DNA of 6,407 bases from Inovirus M13, in sequence record NC_003287.2. One strand, given 5' to 3'. The position numbers and the translations under genes were made by a program. Below the pieces are notes generated by a model, which did no database searches, was not told the DNA's origin, and was given only the letters and a program-made list of their open reading frames with translations. Positions 1 to 6,407 of this stretch are shown here, piece by piece. Position 1 is the first letter of the stretch. Every line of letters begins with the position of its first letter.

Positions 1-831
1 AACGCTACTACTATTAGTAGAATTGATGCCACCTTTTCAGCTCGCGCCCCAAATGAAAATATAGCTAAACAGGTTATTGACCATTTGCGAAATGTATCTA
101 ATGGTCAAACTAAATCTACTCGTTCGCAGAATTGGGAATCAACTGTTACATGGAATGAAACTTCCAGACACCGTACTTTAGTTGCATATTTAAAACATGT
201 TGAGCTACAGCACCAGATTCAGCAATTAAGCTCTAAGCCATCCGCAAAAATGACCTCTTATCAAAAGGAGCAATTAAAGGTACTCTCTAATCCTGACCTG
301 TTGGAGTTTGCTTCCGGTCTGGTTCGCTTTGAAGCTCGAATTAAAACGCGATATTTGAAGTCTTTCGGGCTTCCTCTTAATCTTTTTGATGCAATCCGCT
401 TTGCTTCTGACTATAATAGTCAGGGTAAAGACCTGATTTTTGATTTATGGTCATTCTCGTTTTCTGAACTGTTTAAAGCATTTGAGGGGGATTCAATGAA
501 TATTTATGACGATTCCGCAGTATTGGACGCTATCCAGTCTAAACATTTTACTATTACCCCCTCTGGCAAAACTTCTTTTGCAAAAGCCTCTCGCTATTTT
601 GGTTTTTATCGTCGTCTGGTAAACGAGGGTTATGATAGTGTTGCTCTTACTATGCCTCGTAATTCCTTTTGGCGTTATGTATCTGCATTAGTTGAATGTG
701 GTATTCCTAAATCTCAACTGATGAATCTTTCTACCTGTAATAATGTTGTTCCGTTAGTTCGTTTTATTAACGTAGATTTTTCTTCCCAACGTCCTGACTG
801 GTATAATGAGCCAGTTCTTAAAATCGCATAA
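1..831 (+). CDS. gII: Gene II, C-terminal part (pII, rolling-circle replication initiator; full protein 410 aa when circularised)
   Basis: Frame 1 is open from base 1 to TAA ending at 831 (NATTISRIDATFSARAPNENIAKQVIDHLRNVSNG...PVLKIA). The ORF-track call 85..831 uses a TTG alternative start and is a truncation artefact. Confidence 0.95.
   Translation, partial: NATTISRIDATFSARAPNENIAKQVIDHLRNVSNGQTKSTRSQNWESTVTWNETSRHRTLVAYLKHVELQHQIQQLSSKPSAKMTSYQKEQLKVLSNPDLLEFASGLVRFEARIKTRYLKSFGLPLNLFDAIRFASDYNSQGKDLIFDLWSFSFSELFKAFEGDSMNIYDDSAVLDAIQSKHFTITPSGKTSFAKASRYFGFYRRLVNEGYDSVALTMPRNSFWRYVSALVECGIPKSQLMNLSTCNNVVPLVRFINVDFSSQRPDWYNEPVLKIA
412..417 (+). promoter_or_regulatory. Candidate -10 hexamer (TATAAT) of the gene X promoter inside gene II
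   Basis: Perfect TATAAT at 412..417, about 80 nt upstream of the gene X start; possible -35 TTGATG at 387..392 with a long 19-nt spacer. The position fits an internal promoter known in Ff phages, but the exact hexamers are inferred. Confidence 0.35.
496..831 (+). CDS. gX: Gene X (pX, 111 aa), translated in frame from an internal start of gene II; needed for ssDNA accumulation
   Basis: Internal ATG at 496 in the gene II frame, preceded by a strong Shine-Dalgarno GAGGGGG at 484..490; product MNIYDDSAVLDAIQSK... is identical to the pII C-terminus. Known nested gene in Ff phages. Confidence 0.85.
   Translation: MNIYDDSAVLDAIQSKHFTITPSGKTSFAKASRYFGFYRRLVNEGYDSVALTMPRNSFWRYVSALVECGIPKSQLMNLSTCNNVVPLVRFINVDFSSQRPDWYNEPVLKIA
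802..807 (+). promoter_or_regulatory. Candidate -10 hexamer (TATAAT) of a gene V promoter at the 3' end of gene II
   Basis: Perfect TATAAT at 802..807, about 36 nt upstream of the gene V ATG; no clear -35 seen. Inferred. Confidence 0.3.
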
Positions 832-842
832 GGTAATTCACA

Positions 843-1106
843 ATGATTAAAGTTGAAATTAAACCATCTCAAGCCCAATTTACTACTCGTTCTGGTGTTT
901 CTCGTCAGGGCAAGCCTTATTCACTGAATGAGCAGCTTTGTTACGTTGATTTGGGTAATGAATATCCGGTTCTTGTCAAGATTACTCTTGATGAAGGTCA
1001 GCCAGCCTATGCGCCTGGTCTGTACACCGTTCATCTGTCCTCTTTCAAAGTTGGTCAGTTCGGTTCCCTTATGATTGACCGTCTGCGCCTCGTTCCGGCT
1101 AAGTAA
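843..1106 (+). CDS. gV: Gene V (pV, 87 aa), ssDNA-binding protein that coats progeny plus strands and represses gene II translation
   Basis: ORF 843..1106 gives MIKVEIKPSQAQFTTRSGVSRQGKPYSLNEQLCYVDLGNEYPVLVKITLDEGQPAYAPGLYTVHLSSFKVGQFGSLMIDRLRLVPAK, recognised as Ff gene 5 protein; SD AAGG at 830..833. Confidence 0.97.
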   Translation: MIKVEIKPSQAQFTTRSGVSRQGKPYSLNEQLCYVDLGNEYPVLVKITLDEGQPAYAPGLYTVHLSSFKVGQFGSLMIDRLRLVPAK

Positions 1107-1107
1107 C

Positions 1108-1209
1108 ATGGAGCAGGTCGCGGATTTCGACACAATTTATCAGGCGATGATACAAATCTCCGTTGTACTTTGTTTCGCGCTTGGTATAATCGCTGGGGGT
1201 CAAAGATGA
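1108..1209 (+). CDS. gVII: Gene VII (pVII, 33 aa), minor coat protein at the virion tip that emerges first
   Basis: ATG at 1108, one nt after the gene V stop, gives MEQVADFDTIYQAMIQISVVLCFALGIIAGGQR with TGA at 1207..1209. Too short for the ORF track. Canonical position between V and IX. Confidence 0.85.
   Translation: MEQVADFDTIYQAMIQISVVLCFALGIIAGGQR
1163..1190 (+). promoter_or_regulatory. Strong sigma70-type promoter upstream of genes IX/VIII (-35 TTGTAC, 16-nt spacer, -10 TATAAT)
   Basis: TTGTAC at 1163..1168 and perfect TATAAT at 1185..1190, inside gene VII and about 110 nt upstream of gene VIII. Consistent with the known strong promoter driving major coat protein expression. Confidence 0.6.
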
Positions 1210-1304
1210 GTGTTTTAGTGTATTCTTTCGCCTCTTTCGTTTTAGGTTGGTGCCTTCGTAGTGGCATTACGTATTTTACCCGTTTAATGGAAACTTCCTC
1301 ATGA
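1206..1304 (+). CDS. gIX: Gene IX (pIX, 32 aa), minor coat protein at the pVII end of the virion
   Basis: ATG at 1206 overlaps the gene VII stop (ATGA); product MSVLVYSFASFVLGWCLRSGITYFTRLMETSS, stop TGA at 1302..1304 overlapping the gene VIII ATG. Too short for the ORF track. Confidence 0.85.
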   Translation: MSVLVYSFASFVLGWCLRSGITYFTRLMETSS

Positions 1305-1522
1305 AAAAGTCTTTAGTCCTCAAAGCCTCTGTAGCCGTTGCTACCCTCGTTCCGATGCTGTCTTTCGCTGCTGAGGGTGACGATCCCGCAAAAGCGGCCT
1401 TTAACTCCCTGCAAGCCTCAGCGACCGAATATATCGGTTATGCGTGGGCGATGGTTGTTGTCATTGTCGGCGCAACTATCGGTATCAAGCTGTTTAAGAA
1501 ATTCACCTCGAAAGCAAGCTGA
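1301..1522 (+). CDS. gVIII: Gene VIII (pVIII major coat protein precursor, 73 aa: 23-aa signal peptide + 50-aa mature protein)
   Basis: MKKSLVLKASVAVATLVPMLSFA / AEGDDPAKAAFNSLQASATEYIGYAWAMVVVIVGATIGIKLFKKFTSKAS: signal peptide, acidic N-terminus, hydrophobic helix and basic C-terminus are the classic major coat protein. Asn at mature position 12 (AAC 1403..1405). Confidence 0.97.
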   Translation: MKKSLVLKASVAVATLVPMLSFAAEGDDPAKAAFNSLQASATEYIGYAWAMVVVIVGATIGIKLFKKFTSKAS

Positions 1523-1537
1523 TAAACCGATACAATT

Positions 1538-1565
1538 AAAGGCTCCTTTTGGAGCCTTTTTTTTT
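1538..1565 (+). terminator. Rho-independent terminator after gene VIII
   Basis: GC stem GGCTCC (1541..1546) / GGAGCC (1551..1556) with a TTTT loop, followed by a run of 9 T (1557..1565); located directly after the gene VIII stop. Confidence 0.85.
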
Positions 1566-1578
1566 GGAGATTTTCAAC

Positions 1579-2853
1579 ATGAAAAAATTATTATTCGCAA
1601 TTCCTTTAGTTGTTCCTTTCTATTCTCACTCCGCTGAAACTGTTGAAAGTTGTTTAGCAAAACCCCATACAGAAAATTCATTTACTAACGTCTGGAAAGA
1701 CGACAAAACTTTAGATCGTTACGCTAACTATGAGGGTTGTCTGTGGAATGCTACAGGCGTTGTAGTTTGTACTGGTGACGAAACTCAGTGTTACGGTACA
1801 TGGGTTCCTATTGGGCTTGCTATCCCTGAAAATGAGGGTGGTGGCTCTGAGGGTGGCGGTTCTGAGGGTGGCGGTTCTGAGGGTGGCGGTACTAAACCTC
1901 CTGAGTACGGTGATACACCTATTCCGGGCTATACTTATATCAACCCTCTCGACGGCACTTATCCGCCTGGTACTGAGCAAAACCCCGCTAATCCTAATCC
2001 TTCTCTTGAGGAGTCTCAGCCTCTTAATACTTTCATGTTTCAGAATAATAGGTTCCGAAATAGGCAGGGGGCATTAACTGTTTATACGGGCACTGTTACT
2101 CAAGGCACTGACCCCGTTAAAACTTATTACCAGTACACTCCTGTATCATCAAAAGCCATGTATGACGCTTACTGGAACGGTAAATTCAGAGACTGCGCTT
2201 TCCATTCTGGCTTTAATGAGGATCCATTCGTTTGTGAATATCAAGGCCAATCGTCTGACCTGCCTCAACCTCCTGTCAATGCTGGCGGCGGCTCTGGTGG
2301 TGGTTCTGGTGGCGGCTCTGAGGGTGGTGGCTCTGAGGGTGGCGGTTCTGAGGGTGGCGGCTCTGAGGGAGGCGGTTCCGGTGGTGGCTCTGGTTCCGGT
2401 GATTTTGATTATGAAAAGATGGCAAACGCTAATAAGGGGGCTATGACCGAAAATGCCGATGAAAACGCGCTACAGTCTGACGCTAAAGGCAAACTTGATT
2501 CTGTCGCTACTGATTACGGTGCTGCTATCGATGGTTTCATTGGTGACGTTTCCGGCCTTGCTAATGGTAATGGTGCTACTGGTGATTTTGCTGGCTCTAA
2601 TTCCCAAATGGCTCAAGTCGGTGACGGTGATAATTCACCTTTAATGAATAATTTCCGTCAATATTTACCTTCCCTCCCTCAATCGGTTGAATGTCGCCCT
2701 TTTGTCTTTAGCGCTGGTAAACCATATGAATTTTCTATTGATTGTGACAAAATAAACTTATTCCGTGGTGTCTTTGCGTTTCTTTTATATGTTGCCACCT
2801 TTATGTATGTATTTTCTACGTTTGCTAACATACTGCGTAATAAGGAGTCTTAA
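1579..2853 (+). CDS. gIII: Gene III (pIII, 424 aa with 18-aa signal peptide), minor coat/adsorption protein with N1 and N2 domains, Gly-rich linkers and C-terminal anchor
   Basis: ATG at 1579 with SD GGAG at 1566..1569; product [85 protein letters not shown](EGGGS)n... The ORF-track start at 1549 is a TTG extension into the terminator and is rejected. Confidence 0.95.
1834..1893 (+). repeat. Four tandem 15-bp coding repeats (GAGGGTGGYGGYWCT) encoding (EGGGS)3-EGGGT, Gly-rich linker 1 of pIII between N1 and N2
   Basis: Direct reading: gagggtggtggctct gagggtggcggttct gagggtggcggttct gagggtggcggtact. Confidence 0.9.
2284..2400 (+). repeat. Tandem 12-15-bp coding repeats encoding GGGS/EGGGS units, Gly-rich linker 2 of pIII between N2 and the C-terminal domain
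   Basis: Direct reading: protein [39 protein letters not shown]; DNA units ggcggcggctct / ggtggtggttct / gagggtggcggttct and variants. Confidence 0.9.
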
Positions 2854-2855
2854 TC

Positions 2856-3194
2856 ATGCCAGTTCTTTTGGGTATTCCGTTATTATTGCGTTTCCTCGGT
2901 TTCCTTCTGGTAACTTTGTTCGGCTATCTGCTTACTTTTCTTAAAAAGGGCTTCGGTAAGATAGCTATTGCTATTTCATTGTTTCTTGCTCTTATTATTG
3001 GGCTTAACTCAATTCTTGTGGGTTATCTCTCTGATATTAGCGCTCAATTACCCTCTGACTTTGTTCAGGGTGTTCAGTTAATTCTCCCGTCTAATGCGCT
3101 TCCCTGTTTTTATGTTATTCTCTCTGTAAAGGCTGCTATTTTCATTTTTGACGTTAAACAAAAAATCGTTTCTTATTTGGATTGGGATAAATAA
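2856..3194 (+). CDS. gVI: Gene VI (pVI, 112 aa), hydrophobic minor coat protein at the pIII end of the virion
   Basis: ATG at 2856 with SD AGGAG at 2843..2847; product MPVLLGIPLLLRFLGFLLVTLFGYLLTFLKKGFGKIAIAISLFLALIIGLNSILVGYLSDISAQLPSDF..., start placed 2 nt after the gene III stop. Confidence 0.95.
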   Translation: MPVLLGIPLLLRFLGFLLVTLFGYLLTFLKKGFGKIAIAISLFLALIIGLNSILVGYLSDISAQLPSDFVQGVQLILPSNALPCFYVILSVKAAIFIFDVKQKIVSYLDWDK

Positions 3195-3195
3195 T

Positions 3196-4242
3196 ATGGC
3201 TGTTTATTTTGTAACTGGCAAATTAGGCTCTGGAAAGACGCTCGTTAGCGTTGGTAAGATTCAGGATAAAATTGTAGCTGGGTGCAAAATAGCAACTAAT
3301 CTTGATTTAAGGCTTCAAAACCTCCCGCAAGTCGGGAGGTTCGCTAAAACGCCTCGCGTTCTTAGAATACCGGATAAGCCTTCTATATCTGATTTGCTTG
3401 CTATTGGGCGCGGTAATGATTCCTACGATGAAAATAAAAACGGCTTGCTTGTTCTCGATGAGTGCGGTACTTGGTTTAATACCCGTTCTTGGAATGATAA
3501 GGAAAGACAGCCGATTATTGATTGGTTTCTACATGCTCGTAAATTAGGATGGGATATTATTTTTCTTGTTCAGGACTTATCTATTGTTGATAAACAGGCG
3601 CGTTCTGCATTAGCTGAACATGTTGTTTATTGTCGTCGTCTGGACAGAATTACTTTACCTTTTGTCGGTACTTTATATTCTCTTATTACTGGCTCGAAAA
3701 TGCCTCTGCCTAAATTACATGTTGGCGTTGTTAAATATGGCGATTCTCAATTAAGCCCTACTGTTGAGCGTTGGCTTTATACTGGTAAGAATTTGTATAA
3801 CGCATATGATACTAAACAGGCTTTTTCTAGTAATTATGATTCCGGTGTTTATTCTTATTTAACGCCTTATTTATCACACGGTCGGTATTTCAAACCATTA
3901 AATTTAGGTCAGAAGATGAAATTAACTAAAATATATTTGAAAAAGTTTTCTCGCGTTCTTTGTCTTGCGATTGGATTTGCATCAGCATTTACATATAGTT
4001 ATATAACCCAACCTAAGCCGGAGGTTAAAAAGGTAGTCTCTCAGACCTATGATTTTGATAAATTCACTATTGACTCTTCTCAGCGTCTTAATCTAAGCTA
4101 TCGCTATGTTTTCAAGGATTCTAAGGGAAAATTAATTAATAGCGACGATTTACAGAAGCAAGGTTATTCACTCACATATATTGATTTATGTACTGTTTCC
4201 ATTAAAAAAGGTAATTCAAATGAAATTGTTAAATGTAATTAA
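3196..4242 (+). CDS. gI: Gene I (pI, 348 aa), inner-membrane assembly/export ATPase with N-terminal Walker A motif
   Basis: ATG at 3196 immediately after the gene VI stop (TAA 3192..3194); product MAVYFVTGKLGSGKTLVSVGKIQDK... with Walker A GKLGSGKT (about nt 3217..3240) and a membrane-spanning segment near LCLAIGFASAF. The ORF-track start at 3148 is a TTG extension overlapping gene VI. Confidence 0.93.
   Translation: MAVYFVTGKLGSGKTLVSVGKIQDKIVAGCKIATNLDLRLQNLPQVGRFAKTPRVLRIPDKPSISDLLAIGRGNDSYDENKNGLLVLDECGTWFNTRSWNDKERQPIIDWFLHARKLGWDIIFLVQDLSIVDKQARSALAEHVVYCRRLDRITLPFVGTLYSLITGSKMPLPKLHVGVVKYGDSQLSPTVERWLYTGKNLYNAYDTKQAFSSNYDSGVYSYLTPYLSHGRYFKPLNLGQKMKLTKIYLKKFSRVLCLAIGFASAFTYSYITQPKPEVKKVVSQTYDFDKFTIDSSQRLNLSYRYVFKDSKGKLINSDDLQKQGYSLTYIDLCTVSIKKGNSNEIVKCN
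3916..4242 (+). CDS. gXI: Gene XI (pXI, 108 aa), in-frame internal restart within gene I (from pI Met241); assembly protein partner of pI
   Basis: ATG at 3916 in the gene I frame (720 nt = 240 codons after the gene I start); product MKLTKIYLKKFSRVLCLAIGFASAF... Known nested gene in Ff phages; the internal initiation cannot be proven from sequence alone. Confidence 0.75.
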   Translation: MKLTKIYLKKFSRVLCLAIGFASAFTYSYITQPKPEVKKVVSQTYDFDKFTIDSSQRLNLSYRYVFKDSKGKLINSDDLQKQGYSLTYIDLCTVSIKKGNSNEIVKCN

Positions 4243-5500
4243 TTTTGTTTTCTTGATGTTTGTTTCATCATCTTCTTTTGCTCAGGTAATTGAAATGAAT
4301 AATTCGCCTCTGCGCGATTTTGTAACTTGGTATTCAAAGCAATCAGGCGAATCCGTTATTGTTTCTCCCGATGTAAAAGGTACTGTTACTGTATATTCAT
4401 CTGACGTTAAACCTGAAAATCTACGCAATTTCTTTATTTCTGTTTTACGTGCTAATAATTTTGATATGGTTGGTTCAATTCCTTCCATAATTCAGAAGTA
4501 TAATCCAAACAATCAGGATTATATTGATGAATTGCCATCATCTGATAATCAGGAATATGATGATAATTCCGCTCCTTCTGGTGGTTTCTTTGTTCCGCAA
4601 AATGATAATGTTACTCAAACTTTTAAAATTAATAACGTTCGGGCAAAGGATTTAATACGAGTTGTCGAATTGTTTGTAAAGTCTAATACTTCTAAATCCT
4701 CAAATGTATTATCTATTGACGGCTCTAATCTATTAGTTGTTAGTGCACCTAAAGATATTTTAGATAACCTTCCTCAATTCCTTTCTACTGTTGATTTGCC
4801 AACTGACCAGATATTGATTGAGGGTTTGATATTTGAGGTTCAGCAAGGTGATGCTTTAGATTTTTCATTTGCTGCTGGCTCTCAGCGTGGCACTGTTGCA
4901 GGCGGTGTTAATACTGACCGCCTCACCTCTGTTTTATCTTCTGCTGGTGGTTCGTTCGGTATTTTTAATGGCGATGTTTTAGGGCTATCAGTTCGCGCAT
5001 TAAAGACTAATAGCCATTCAAAAATATTGTCTGTGCCACGTATTCTTACGCTTTCAGGTCAGAAGGGTTCTATCTCTGTTGGCCAGAATGTCCCTTTTAT
5101 TACTGGTCGTGTGACTGGTGAATCTGCCAATGTAAATAATCCATTTCAGACGATTGAGCGTCAAAATGTAGGTATTTCCATGAGCGTTTTTCCTGTTGCA
5201 ATGGCTGGCGGTAATATTGTTCTGGATATTACCAGCAAGGCCGATAGTTTGAGTTCTTCTACTCAGGCAAGTGATGTTATTACTAATCAAAGAAGTATTG
5301 CTACAACGGTTAATTTGCGTGATGGACAGACTCTTTTACTCGGTGGCCTCACTGATTATAAAAACACTTCTCAAGATTCTGGCGTACCGTTCCTGTCTAA
5401 AATCCCTTTAATCGGCCTCCTGTTTAGCTCCCGCTCTGATTCCAACGAGGAAAGCACGTTATACGTGCTCGTCAAAGCAACCATAGTACGCGCCCTGTAG
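4220..5500 (+). CDS. gIV: Gene IV (pIV, 426 aa precursor with about 21-aa signal peptide), outer-membrane secretin channel for phage extrusion
   Basis: ATG at 4220 with SD AAGG at 4208..4211; product MKLLNVINFVFLMFVSSSSFA/QVIEMNNSPLRDFVTWYSKQSG...; C-terminal half (…VPFITGR…GQTLLLGGL…VPFLSKIPLIGLLF…) looks like the secretin domain shared with GspD/PilQ. Overlaps the gene I end by 23 nt. The ORF-track start at 4181 is a TTG extension. Confidence 0.95.
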   Translation: MKLLNVINFVFLMFVSSSSFAQVIEMNNSPLRDFVTWYSKQSGESVIVSPDVKGTVTVYSSDVKPENLRNFFISVLRANNFDMVGSIPSIIQKYNPNNQDYIDELPSSDNQEYDDNSAPSGGFFVPQNDNVTQTFKINNVRAKDLIRVVELFVKSNTSKSSNVLSIDGSNLLVVSAPKDILDNLPQFLSTVDLPTDQILIEGLIFEVQQGDALDFSFAAGSQRGTVAGGVNTDRLTSVLSSAGGSFGIFNGDVLGLSVRALKTNSHSKILSVPRILTLSGQKGSISVGQNVPFITGRVTGESANVNNPFQTIERQNVGISMSVFPVAMAGGNIVLDITSKADSLSSSTQASDVITNQRSIATTVNLRDGQTLLLGGLTDYKNTSQDSGVPFLSKIPLIGLLFSSRSDSNEESTLYVLVKATIVRAL

Positions 5501-5577
5501 CGGCGCATTAAGCGCGGCGGGTGTGGTGGTTACGCGCAGCGTGACCGCTACACTTGCCAGCGCCCTAGCGCCCGCTC
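5499..5577 (+). other. Packaging (morphogenetic) signal hairpin, the first element of the intergenic region
   Basis: GC-rich imperfect inverted repeat immediately after the gene IV stop (TAG 5498..5500): gtagcggcgcattaagcgcggcggg...ccagcgccctagcgcccgctcc. Position and sequence match the Ff packaging signal also present in f1-ori phagemids. Boundaries approximate. Confidence 0.7.
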
Positions 5578-5589
5578 CTTTCGCTTTCT

Positions 5590-5760
5590 TCCCTTCCTTT
5601 CTCGCCACGTTCGCCGGCTTTCCCCGTCAAGCTCTAAATCGGGGGCTCCCTTTAGGGTTCCGATTTAGTGCTTTACGGCACCTCGACCCCAAAAAACTTG
5701 ATTTGGGTGATGGTTCACGTAGTGGGCCATCGCCCTGATAGACGGTTTTTCGCCCTTTGA
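5590..5760 (+). promoter_or_regulatory. Minus-strand (complementary-strand) replication origin, hairpins B/C; host RNA polymerase primer-synthesis site
   Basis: Structured GC-rich non-coding segment between the packaging signal and the plus-strand origin (…ggctttccccgtcaagctctaaatcgggggctccctttagggttccgatttagtgctttacggcacctcgacccc…), recognised as Ff/f1 ori sequence. Boundaries approximate. Confidence 0.6.
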
Positions 5761-5765
5761 CGTTG

Positions 5766-5910
5766 GAGTCCACGTTCTTTAATAGTGGACTCTTGTTCCA
5801 AACTGGAACAACACTCAACCCTATCTCGGGCTATTCTTTTGATTTATAAGGGATTTTGCCGATTTCGGCCTATTGGTTAAAAAATGAGCTGATTTAACAA
5901 AAATTTAACG
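5766..5910 (+). promoter_or_regulatory. Plus-strand (viral-strand) rolling-circle origin: pII nick site between 5780 and 5781, core hairpins and downstream AT-rich enhancer domain
   Basis: Inverted repeat gagtccac…gtggactc around the sequence ttcttt^aatagtggactcttgttccaaactggaacaaca, with a second small hairpin tgttccaaactggaaca. This matches the canonical Ff pII recognition/nick sequence, followed by an AT-rich region. Boundaries of the enhancer domain approximate. Confidence 0.8.
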
Positions 5911-5933
5911 CGAATTTTAACAAAATATTAACG

Positions 5934-5962
5934 TTTACAATTTAAATATTTGCTTATACAAT
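5934..5962 (+). promoter_or_regulatory. Gene II promoter (-35 TTTACA, 17-nt spacer, -10 TACAAT)
   Basis: TTTACA at 5934..5939, 17-nt spacer, TACAAT at 5957..5962, about 45 nt upstream of the gene II ATG at 6006; near-consensus sigma70 promoter. Confidence 0.65.
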
Positions 5963-6005
5963 CTTCCTGTTTTTGGGGCTTTTCTGATTATCAACCGGGG
6001 TACAT

Positions 6006-6407
6006 ATGATTGACATGCTAGTTTTACGATTACCGTTCATCGATTCTCTTGTTTGCTCCAGACTCTCAGGCAATGACCTGATAGCCTTTGTAGACCTCTC
6101 AAAAATAGCTACCCTCTCCGGCATGAATTTATCAGCTAGAACGGTTGAATATCATATTGATGGTGATTTGACTGTCTCCGGCCTTTCTCACCCTTTTGAA
6201 TCTTTACCTACACATTACTCAGGCATTGCATTTAAAATATATGAGGGTTCTAAAAATTTTTATCCTTGCGTTGAAATAAAGGCTTCTCCCGCAAAAGTAT
6301 TACAGGGTCATAATGTTTTTGGTACAACCGATTTAGCTTTATGCTCTGAGGCTTTATTGCTTAATTTTGCTAATTCTTTGCCTTGCCTGTATGATTTATT
6401 GGATGTT
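6006..6407 (+). CDS. gII: Gene II, N-terminal part (pII replication initiator nickase); partial in linear view, continues in frame at 1..831 across the circular junction
   Basis: ATG at 6006 gives MIDMLVLRLPFIDSLVCSRLSGNDLIAFVDLSKIATLSG..., the recognised pII N-terminus. It runs to the window end with no stop; 402 nt = 134 codons, so it joins frame 1 at position 1. A -35/-10 promoter lies just upstream. Confidence 0.95.
   Translation, partial: MIDMLVLRLPFIDSLVCSRLSGNDLIAFVDLSKIATLSGMNLSARTVEYHIDGDLTVSGLSHPFESLPTHYSGIAFKIYEGSKNFYPCVEIKASPAKVLQGHNVFGTTDLALCSEALLLNFANSLPCLYDLLDV

Follow-up and report, generated by a model that had tools for sequence, protein, structure and literature searches.

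The window, by which we mean the whole 6,407-nt stretch of DNA that was analysed, is almost certainly the complete genome of a wild-type M13 of the classical reference type, in which the codon AAC for residue 12 of the mature major coat protein (pVIII) is the D12N change of the M13 lineage, a single G to A step from an ancestral GAC that would make the virion less negative. The codon occupies positions 1403–1405, directly after ttt (Phe11) at 1400–1402, and specifies Asn12 of mature pVIII, or Asn35 of the precursor. Gene VIII begins with an ATG that overlaps the stop codon of gene IX (ATGA, 1301–1304), and translation of the open reading frame at 1301–1522 gives MKKSLVLKASVAVATLVPMLSFAAEGDDPAKAAFNSLQASATEYIGYAWAMVVVIVGATIGIKLFKKFTSKAS, a precursor that divides into MKKSLVLKASVAVATLVPMLSFA and AEGDDPAKAAFNSLQ. 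Since the signal peptide is 23 residues long, the mature protein starts at 1370. Residues 24–73 of the window pVIII are identical to the 50-residue chains deposited in the PDB as 'M13 major coat protein' (2cpb, 2cps, 2mjz, 8ixj and others), aligned 1–50 to 1–50, and in the 73-residue PDB chain 8ixk_P the mature pVIII aligns at 24–73. An earlier reading of the DNA from its letters alone (the sequence-only reading) had assigned AAC at 1403–1405 to Asn12 of mature pVIII, and the sequence, the frame of the ORF and the mature N terminus in the PDB all bear this out. The features on which the analysis draws are as follows.

1..6407, + strand: complete genome of an Ff phage (M13-type), conventionally numbered
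1301..1522, + strand: gene VIII, 73-aa major coat protein precursor, from the ORF and the annotation of homologous records, which has the same coordinates; the exact protein is CAPSD_BPM13 (CAA23861.1)
1301..1369, + strand: pVIII signal peptide, 23 aa, MKKSLVLKASVAVATLVPMLSFA; the mature M13 chains in the PDB (50 aa) start at AEGDD
1370..1519, + strand: mature pVIII, 50 aa, the same sequence as the PDB 'M13 major coat protein'
1403..1405, + strand: Asn12 codon AAC; the diagnostic base is A at 1403, which is G in all non-M13 Ff genomes examined
1538..1569, + strand: terminator-like stem-loop and T-run from a consensus scan (9-bp stem, 5 G-C pairs), just downstream of gene VIII and outside the marker

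Two further ORFs overlap the codon (1338–1637 on the + strand and 1313–1414 on the − strand) and were dismissed, as they are annotated in no homologous record.

Residue 12 across Ff sequences

A lone codon has no chance expectation, and the meaningful test of Asn12 as a marker is its specificity. The window was aligned with 19 curated, non-redundant, full-length Ff genomes rotated to a common origin (n=20). Codon 12 is AAC in the window and in M13-Rutgers only and is GAC (Asp) in 18 of the 20, which comprise two classical f1, two NBRC f1, seven experimental-evolution f1, fd, and six recent environmental isolates (FfAmethyst, FfIris, FfLavender, which is ∼9.5% divergent, FfLilac, FfViolet and Copypasta). 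Including the contigs described below, each of the 11 other M13-type sequences has AAC, against 0 of the non-M13 Ff sequences examined. Since the compared sequences are related laboratory lineages, the 11 of 11 are to be counted as one clade-defining substitution from a single ancestral event and not as independent events. At the protein level, an exact match to the N12 protein (CAPSD_BPM13) is encoded on 396 contigs and one to the D12 protein (CAPSD_BPF1) on 34, and in the PDB the chains named M13 coat protein are N12 and those named fd are D12, as separate sequences. The D12N difference between M13 and fd/f1 is also stated explicitly in the literature (PMC9231167; PMC4270384). The sequence-only reading had given Asn12 for M13 and Asp12 for fd and f1 and had named an alignment to the three references as the check; that alignment finds Asn12 to be M13-specific within Ff, and the statement holds in the 20 Ff genomes, 14 further contigs, the PDB chains and both papers. 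As a difference between M13 and f1/fd, Asn12 versus Asp12 is textbook knowledge that has been in the literature for decades, and because the fact is so long known the marker raises no new biological question.

Four more sequences were obtained from a pattern scan in which the diagnostic base was given as R: one IMG/VR contig, which is fd-like and D12, and the contigs L021, L022 and L023. In the viral contig collection the scan found a copy of fd and nothing else, in metagenome contigs it gave zero matches, and gene VIII had no match among plasmids (PLSDB) or in the collection of complete E. coli genomes. L022, from a 'SAR11' single-cell assembly (JPUP01000080.1), is N12 and starts with lacZ-alpha fused at window position 5869; it is therefore M13mp-vector contamination. 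L021 and L023 are actinomycete WGS contigs (Streptomyces, Nonomuraea) and represent cloning-vector contamination with D12, L021 holding an f1-origin segment together with a D12 gene VIII fragment and L023 a 66-nt D12 gene VIII fragment only. In practice the codon is a fast and reliable sequence test for whether material derives from M13, as do most scaffolds for cloning, phage display and DNA origami, or from f1/fd, and it helps to spot vector contamination in assemblies.

Linked bases and the assignment to M13

Among the 20 Ff genomes, 19 sites are private to the window and M13-Rutgers, with 1403 as one of them.

875, 887, 971, 1403, 2370, 2817, 4285, 4321, 4324, 4343, 4348, 4354, 4366, 4369, 4666, 4678, 4681, 5302 and 5830 (within 1..6407, + strand): M13-private sites in the window

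Only two of these are non-synonymous, 1403 (pVIII D12N) and 4343 (pIV T42S), and the rest are synonymous or intergenic. Genotyping was extended to 14 more contigs, nine of them N12 and five D12, and to the IMG/VR contig. The N12 sequences (the nine contigs and L022) have the M13-private base at every site that they cover, with the sole exception of L033, which has T at 5830. The M13-private bases are in 0 of the D12 sequences (the five contigs, the IMG/VR contig, and the f1 and fd references). It is this complete linkage with the 18 other M13-private bases that makes Asn12 usable as a lineage marker. Most of the nine further N12 contigs carry lacZ-alpha and hence are M13mp/M13KE-type vectors.

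The differences from f1 cluster in gene IV, where the 110 nt of 4285–4394 hold 12 of the 52, versus 0.9 expected (P∼7e-11 for a given interval of this size). Nearly all of the differences in this patch are synonymous and M13-private, and FfLavender has only two of the alleles. Judged from this clustering, the patch looks like a recombination tract from an unsampled Ff lineage.

Ff phages were defined by a ∼6.4-kb genome, the gene order II(X)-V-VII-IX-VIII-III-VI-I(XI)-IV, an intergenic origin region and at least 90% identity to type members. The window is 97–99.8% identical to fd, f1 and M13 over 100% of its length, and its ORFs lie at the annotated coordinates (II/X, V, VII, IX, VIII, III, VI, I and IV). 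End to end, identity is 99.8% to M13-Rutgers (JX412914), ∼99% to several f1 and 97% to fd. Asn12, the 18 other private bases (including pIV Ser42 and the gene IV patch at 4285–4387) and the closest whole genome all place the window in the M13 lineage, and the assignment to M13 is secure. It is also wild-type and not vector, being free of lacZ-alpha or any other intergenic insert and having G at 6125, with ATG as gene II codon 40. The sequence-only reading had proposed an M13-type genome from Asn12 together with the 6,407-nt length. The M13-type assignment stands on the 18 other private sites and the whole-genome distance, but length has been dropped as an M13 marker: all f1 records are also 6,407 nt, and the length excludes only fd (6,408 nt), in which one base is added in the stretch between genes VI and I, after window position 3194.

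Two alternatives bear directly on the assignment. The window might derive from f1 or fd, or be a hybrid, and have acquired D12N independently, in which case Asn12 would mislead as to strain. Such an origin would fit the length of f1, and at eight gene IV positions the window carries the fd base, which other M13 sequences lack.

4453, 4471, 4477, 4479, 4480, 4489, 4786 and 5374 (gene IV): window sites that agree with fd and not with other M13 (n=8)

However, none of the 19 M13-private bases, which range in position from 875 to 5830, is missing from the window; 15 substitutions separate it from M13-Rutgers, 52 from f1 J02448, 61 from f1 V00606 and, together with one indel, 193 from fd; and its pIV, pI and pVIII have exactly the sequences deposited for M13 as CAA23865.1, CAA23864.1 and CAA23861.1. 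An f1 or fd origin is accordingly extremely improbable. The warning in the sequence-only reading that other positions may point elsewhere was partly apt in that ∼12 sites set the window apart and eight match fd, but these do not outweigh the assignment to M13. Hardly any weight falls, likewise, on the idea that AAC arose as a sequencing error in the record or as an artefact of the laboratory. Four bases of the window (1579A, 2710A, 4747A and 5443C) are found in no other full-length genome, and some of them could be historical sequencing errors. In contrast, all of the independent M13-type sequences that were examined have 1403A, among them vector-derived contigs and modern assemblies of several unrelated samples, and the N12 protein is encoded on the 396 contigs mentioned above and is the form in the solved M13 structures. 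Moreover, most of the private bases of the window are reproduced exactly in two independent read-archive assemblies.

Charge and ancestry of Asn12

At the site aligned with residue 12, the outgroup phages If1 (L044) and IKe (L047) have Asp and the outgroup phages I2-2 (L046) and Erwinia phage PEar6 (L045) have Asn, in the motif AMNSL. Because Asp is found in every non-M13 Ff lineage, including the most divergent, and in two of the four outgroups (If1 and IKe), it is the ancestral residue within Ff. The Asn of the distant class I phages I2-2 and PEar6 means that the D/N alternation arose independently and that Asn is M13-specific only within Ff. Asp in IKe and If1 versus Asn in I2-2 and PEar6 amounts to an independent D/N switch in the Lineavirus group.

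Residue 12 of pVIII lies on the virion surface, in the solvent-exposed N-terminal segment (PMC9231167). In fd, residue 12 is listed as one of the carboxyls that carbodiimide (EDAC) activation addresses. We propose that a G to A transition at 1403 converted GAC to AAC, which would replace the Asp carboxylate with a neutral amide and remove one negative surface charge from each pVIII subunit, such that the M13 virion would be less negatively charged than that of f1 or fd with the coat protein otherwise unchanged. The formal net charge of pVIII residues 1–25 is −3 in fd and f1 versus −2 in the window and M13. The statement in the sequence-only reading that Asn12 changes the surface charge of the virion follows from the exchange of Asp for Asn at a surface residue and from this difference in formal charge. 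There are ∼2700 copies of pVIII per virion, and therefore an M13 virion would have roughly 2700 fewer negative charges. The sequences themselves show the codon, its confinement to M13-type sequences within Ff, the linkage, the ancestral Asp and the formal charges, while the exposure of residue 12, the number of copies and how large the biophysical effect is are inferred or come from the literature. The charge difference would underlie the differing electrophoretic and liquid-crystal behaviour that has been reported for M13 and fd; a literature search gave nothing usable on quantitative charge or mobility of M13 versus fd. A difference of one charge per subunit is relevant to virions as colloids, nanomaterial scaffolds and display platforms. 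Since the rest of pVIII is identical, nothing in the sequence suggests an altered fold or assembly as a result of D12N.

Whether D12N was adaptive rather than neutral, as an adjustment of virion surface charge and part of a recurrent trend in Ff coats, is a separate matter. Several natural pVIII variants in the same 90% cluster have lost one exposed N-terminal acidic residue (E2Q, D4A, D5G and D5N), Asp and Asn alternate also between IKe and I2-2/PEar6, and D12N is one of just two non-synonymous changes in the 19 M13-private sites. However, drift alone predicts that most variation will occur at exposed, unconstrained residues, the variants are few and were compared without phylogenetic control, and no data on fitness, adsorption or stability were found. 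An adaptive origin is hence unlikely, and we retain D12N as a lineage substitution of M13. The losses of acidic residues within pVIII residues 2–12 (1373–1405) are carried by FfLavender and P0013 (E2Q), P0003 (D4A), FfIris (D5G), P0015 (D5N) and M13 (D12N).

Atypical bases of the window and comparison with known phages

The window differs from M13-Rutgers at 15 sites, and at 12 of these it stands apart from every other full-length M13-type sequence, for which reason a single marker codon gives an incomplete picture of this genome. Three of the 12 are coding changes, and the remaining nine are synonymous and in gene IV.

1579: start codon of gene III, ATG in the window versus GTG
2710: pIII residue 378, Ser in the window versus Gly
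4479: pIV residue 87, Ile in the window versus Asn

At a 13th site, 1737, the T of the window is common to only one of the other full-length M13-type sequences (L031). The gene III start at 1579 is ATG in the window and GTG in all other sequences that cover the site (19 curated Ff genomes and 16 contigs). Within gene IV, 4477A and 4479T are common only to the 1978 fd and 1981 f1 (V00606) records and 5374A only to the fd record. The window's exact pIII (gene III, 1579–2853) is absent from a collection of 15 billion proteins, and there is no contig encoding this exact pIII on record.

The occurrence of 4477A, 4479T and 5374A in old records only had pointed to sequencing errors made in 1978–1981 as the source of the private bases. 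This explanation is no longer favoured, given two read-archive assemblies (L048 and L049; runs SRR32389465 and SRR32389466) that are 100% identical to the window over 2331–6406, all private bases in that range included; both assemblies stop short of 1579. From this identity it follows that the private bases of the window within 2331–6406 exist in sequenced DNA, which is either a real sublineage or synthetic DNA made from the reference, and L048 and L049 could be synthetic DNA built in this way. We put forward only tentatively, as rather unlikely, two separate readings: that the window represents a real 'reference-type' sublineage of M13, distinct from the M13 that founded all common vectors and marked by pIII Ser378 and pIV Ile87, by ATG as the gene III start and by a mosaic stretch of gene IV that is longer; and that D12N is one of a series of recurrent, possibly selected losses of negative surface charge in Ff coat proteins.

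Among known phages, the window corresponds most closely to the classical M13 reference, with which it shares the 6,407-nt length and the conventional numbering origin. Its pVIII (CAA23861.1), pI (CAA23864.1) and pIV (CAA23865.1/NP_510894.1/P03665, G4P_BPM13) agree residue for residue with the proteins of the classical M13 reference, the unusual pIV Ile87 included. The near-consecutive numbering of the M13 accessions matched (61, 64 and 65) makes the classical M13 reference sequence itself the most likely identity of the window. Compared with f1 J02448, the window has 52 nucleotide and 5 amino-acid differences, and Hill & Petersen reportedly arrived at agreeing counts for f1 versus M13 in 1982.

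The M13-Rutgers isolate ('WT variety Rutgers', JX412914) and the M13mp/M13KE-type vectors have Asn12 and the other M13-private bases, as does the window, at 99.8% identity. Unlike the window, Rutgers has GTG at 1579, pIII Gly378 and pIV Asn87. Rutgers and all of the insert- or lacZ-bearing contigs (L022, L024–L029 and L032) also have 6125T (pII M40I), whereas the window has 6125G (Met40). The wild-type-like contigs L031 and L033 have 6125G as well. We take M40I at 6125 to be the gene II compensatory change of the M13mp vectors; if it is, the ancestry of the 'WT' Rutgers isolate may include a vector, either by descent or through recombination.

The phages f1 (J02448 and V00606) and fd (J02451) have the same gene order and coordinates as the window, and their pVIII differs from that of the window at residue 12 only. 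Both have Asp12 (GAC) in place of Asn12. At an equal length of 6,407 nt, f1 differs from the window by 52–61 substitutions, while fd, at 6,408 nt, differs by 193 substitutions and one extra base.
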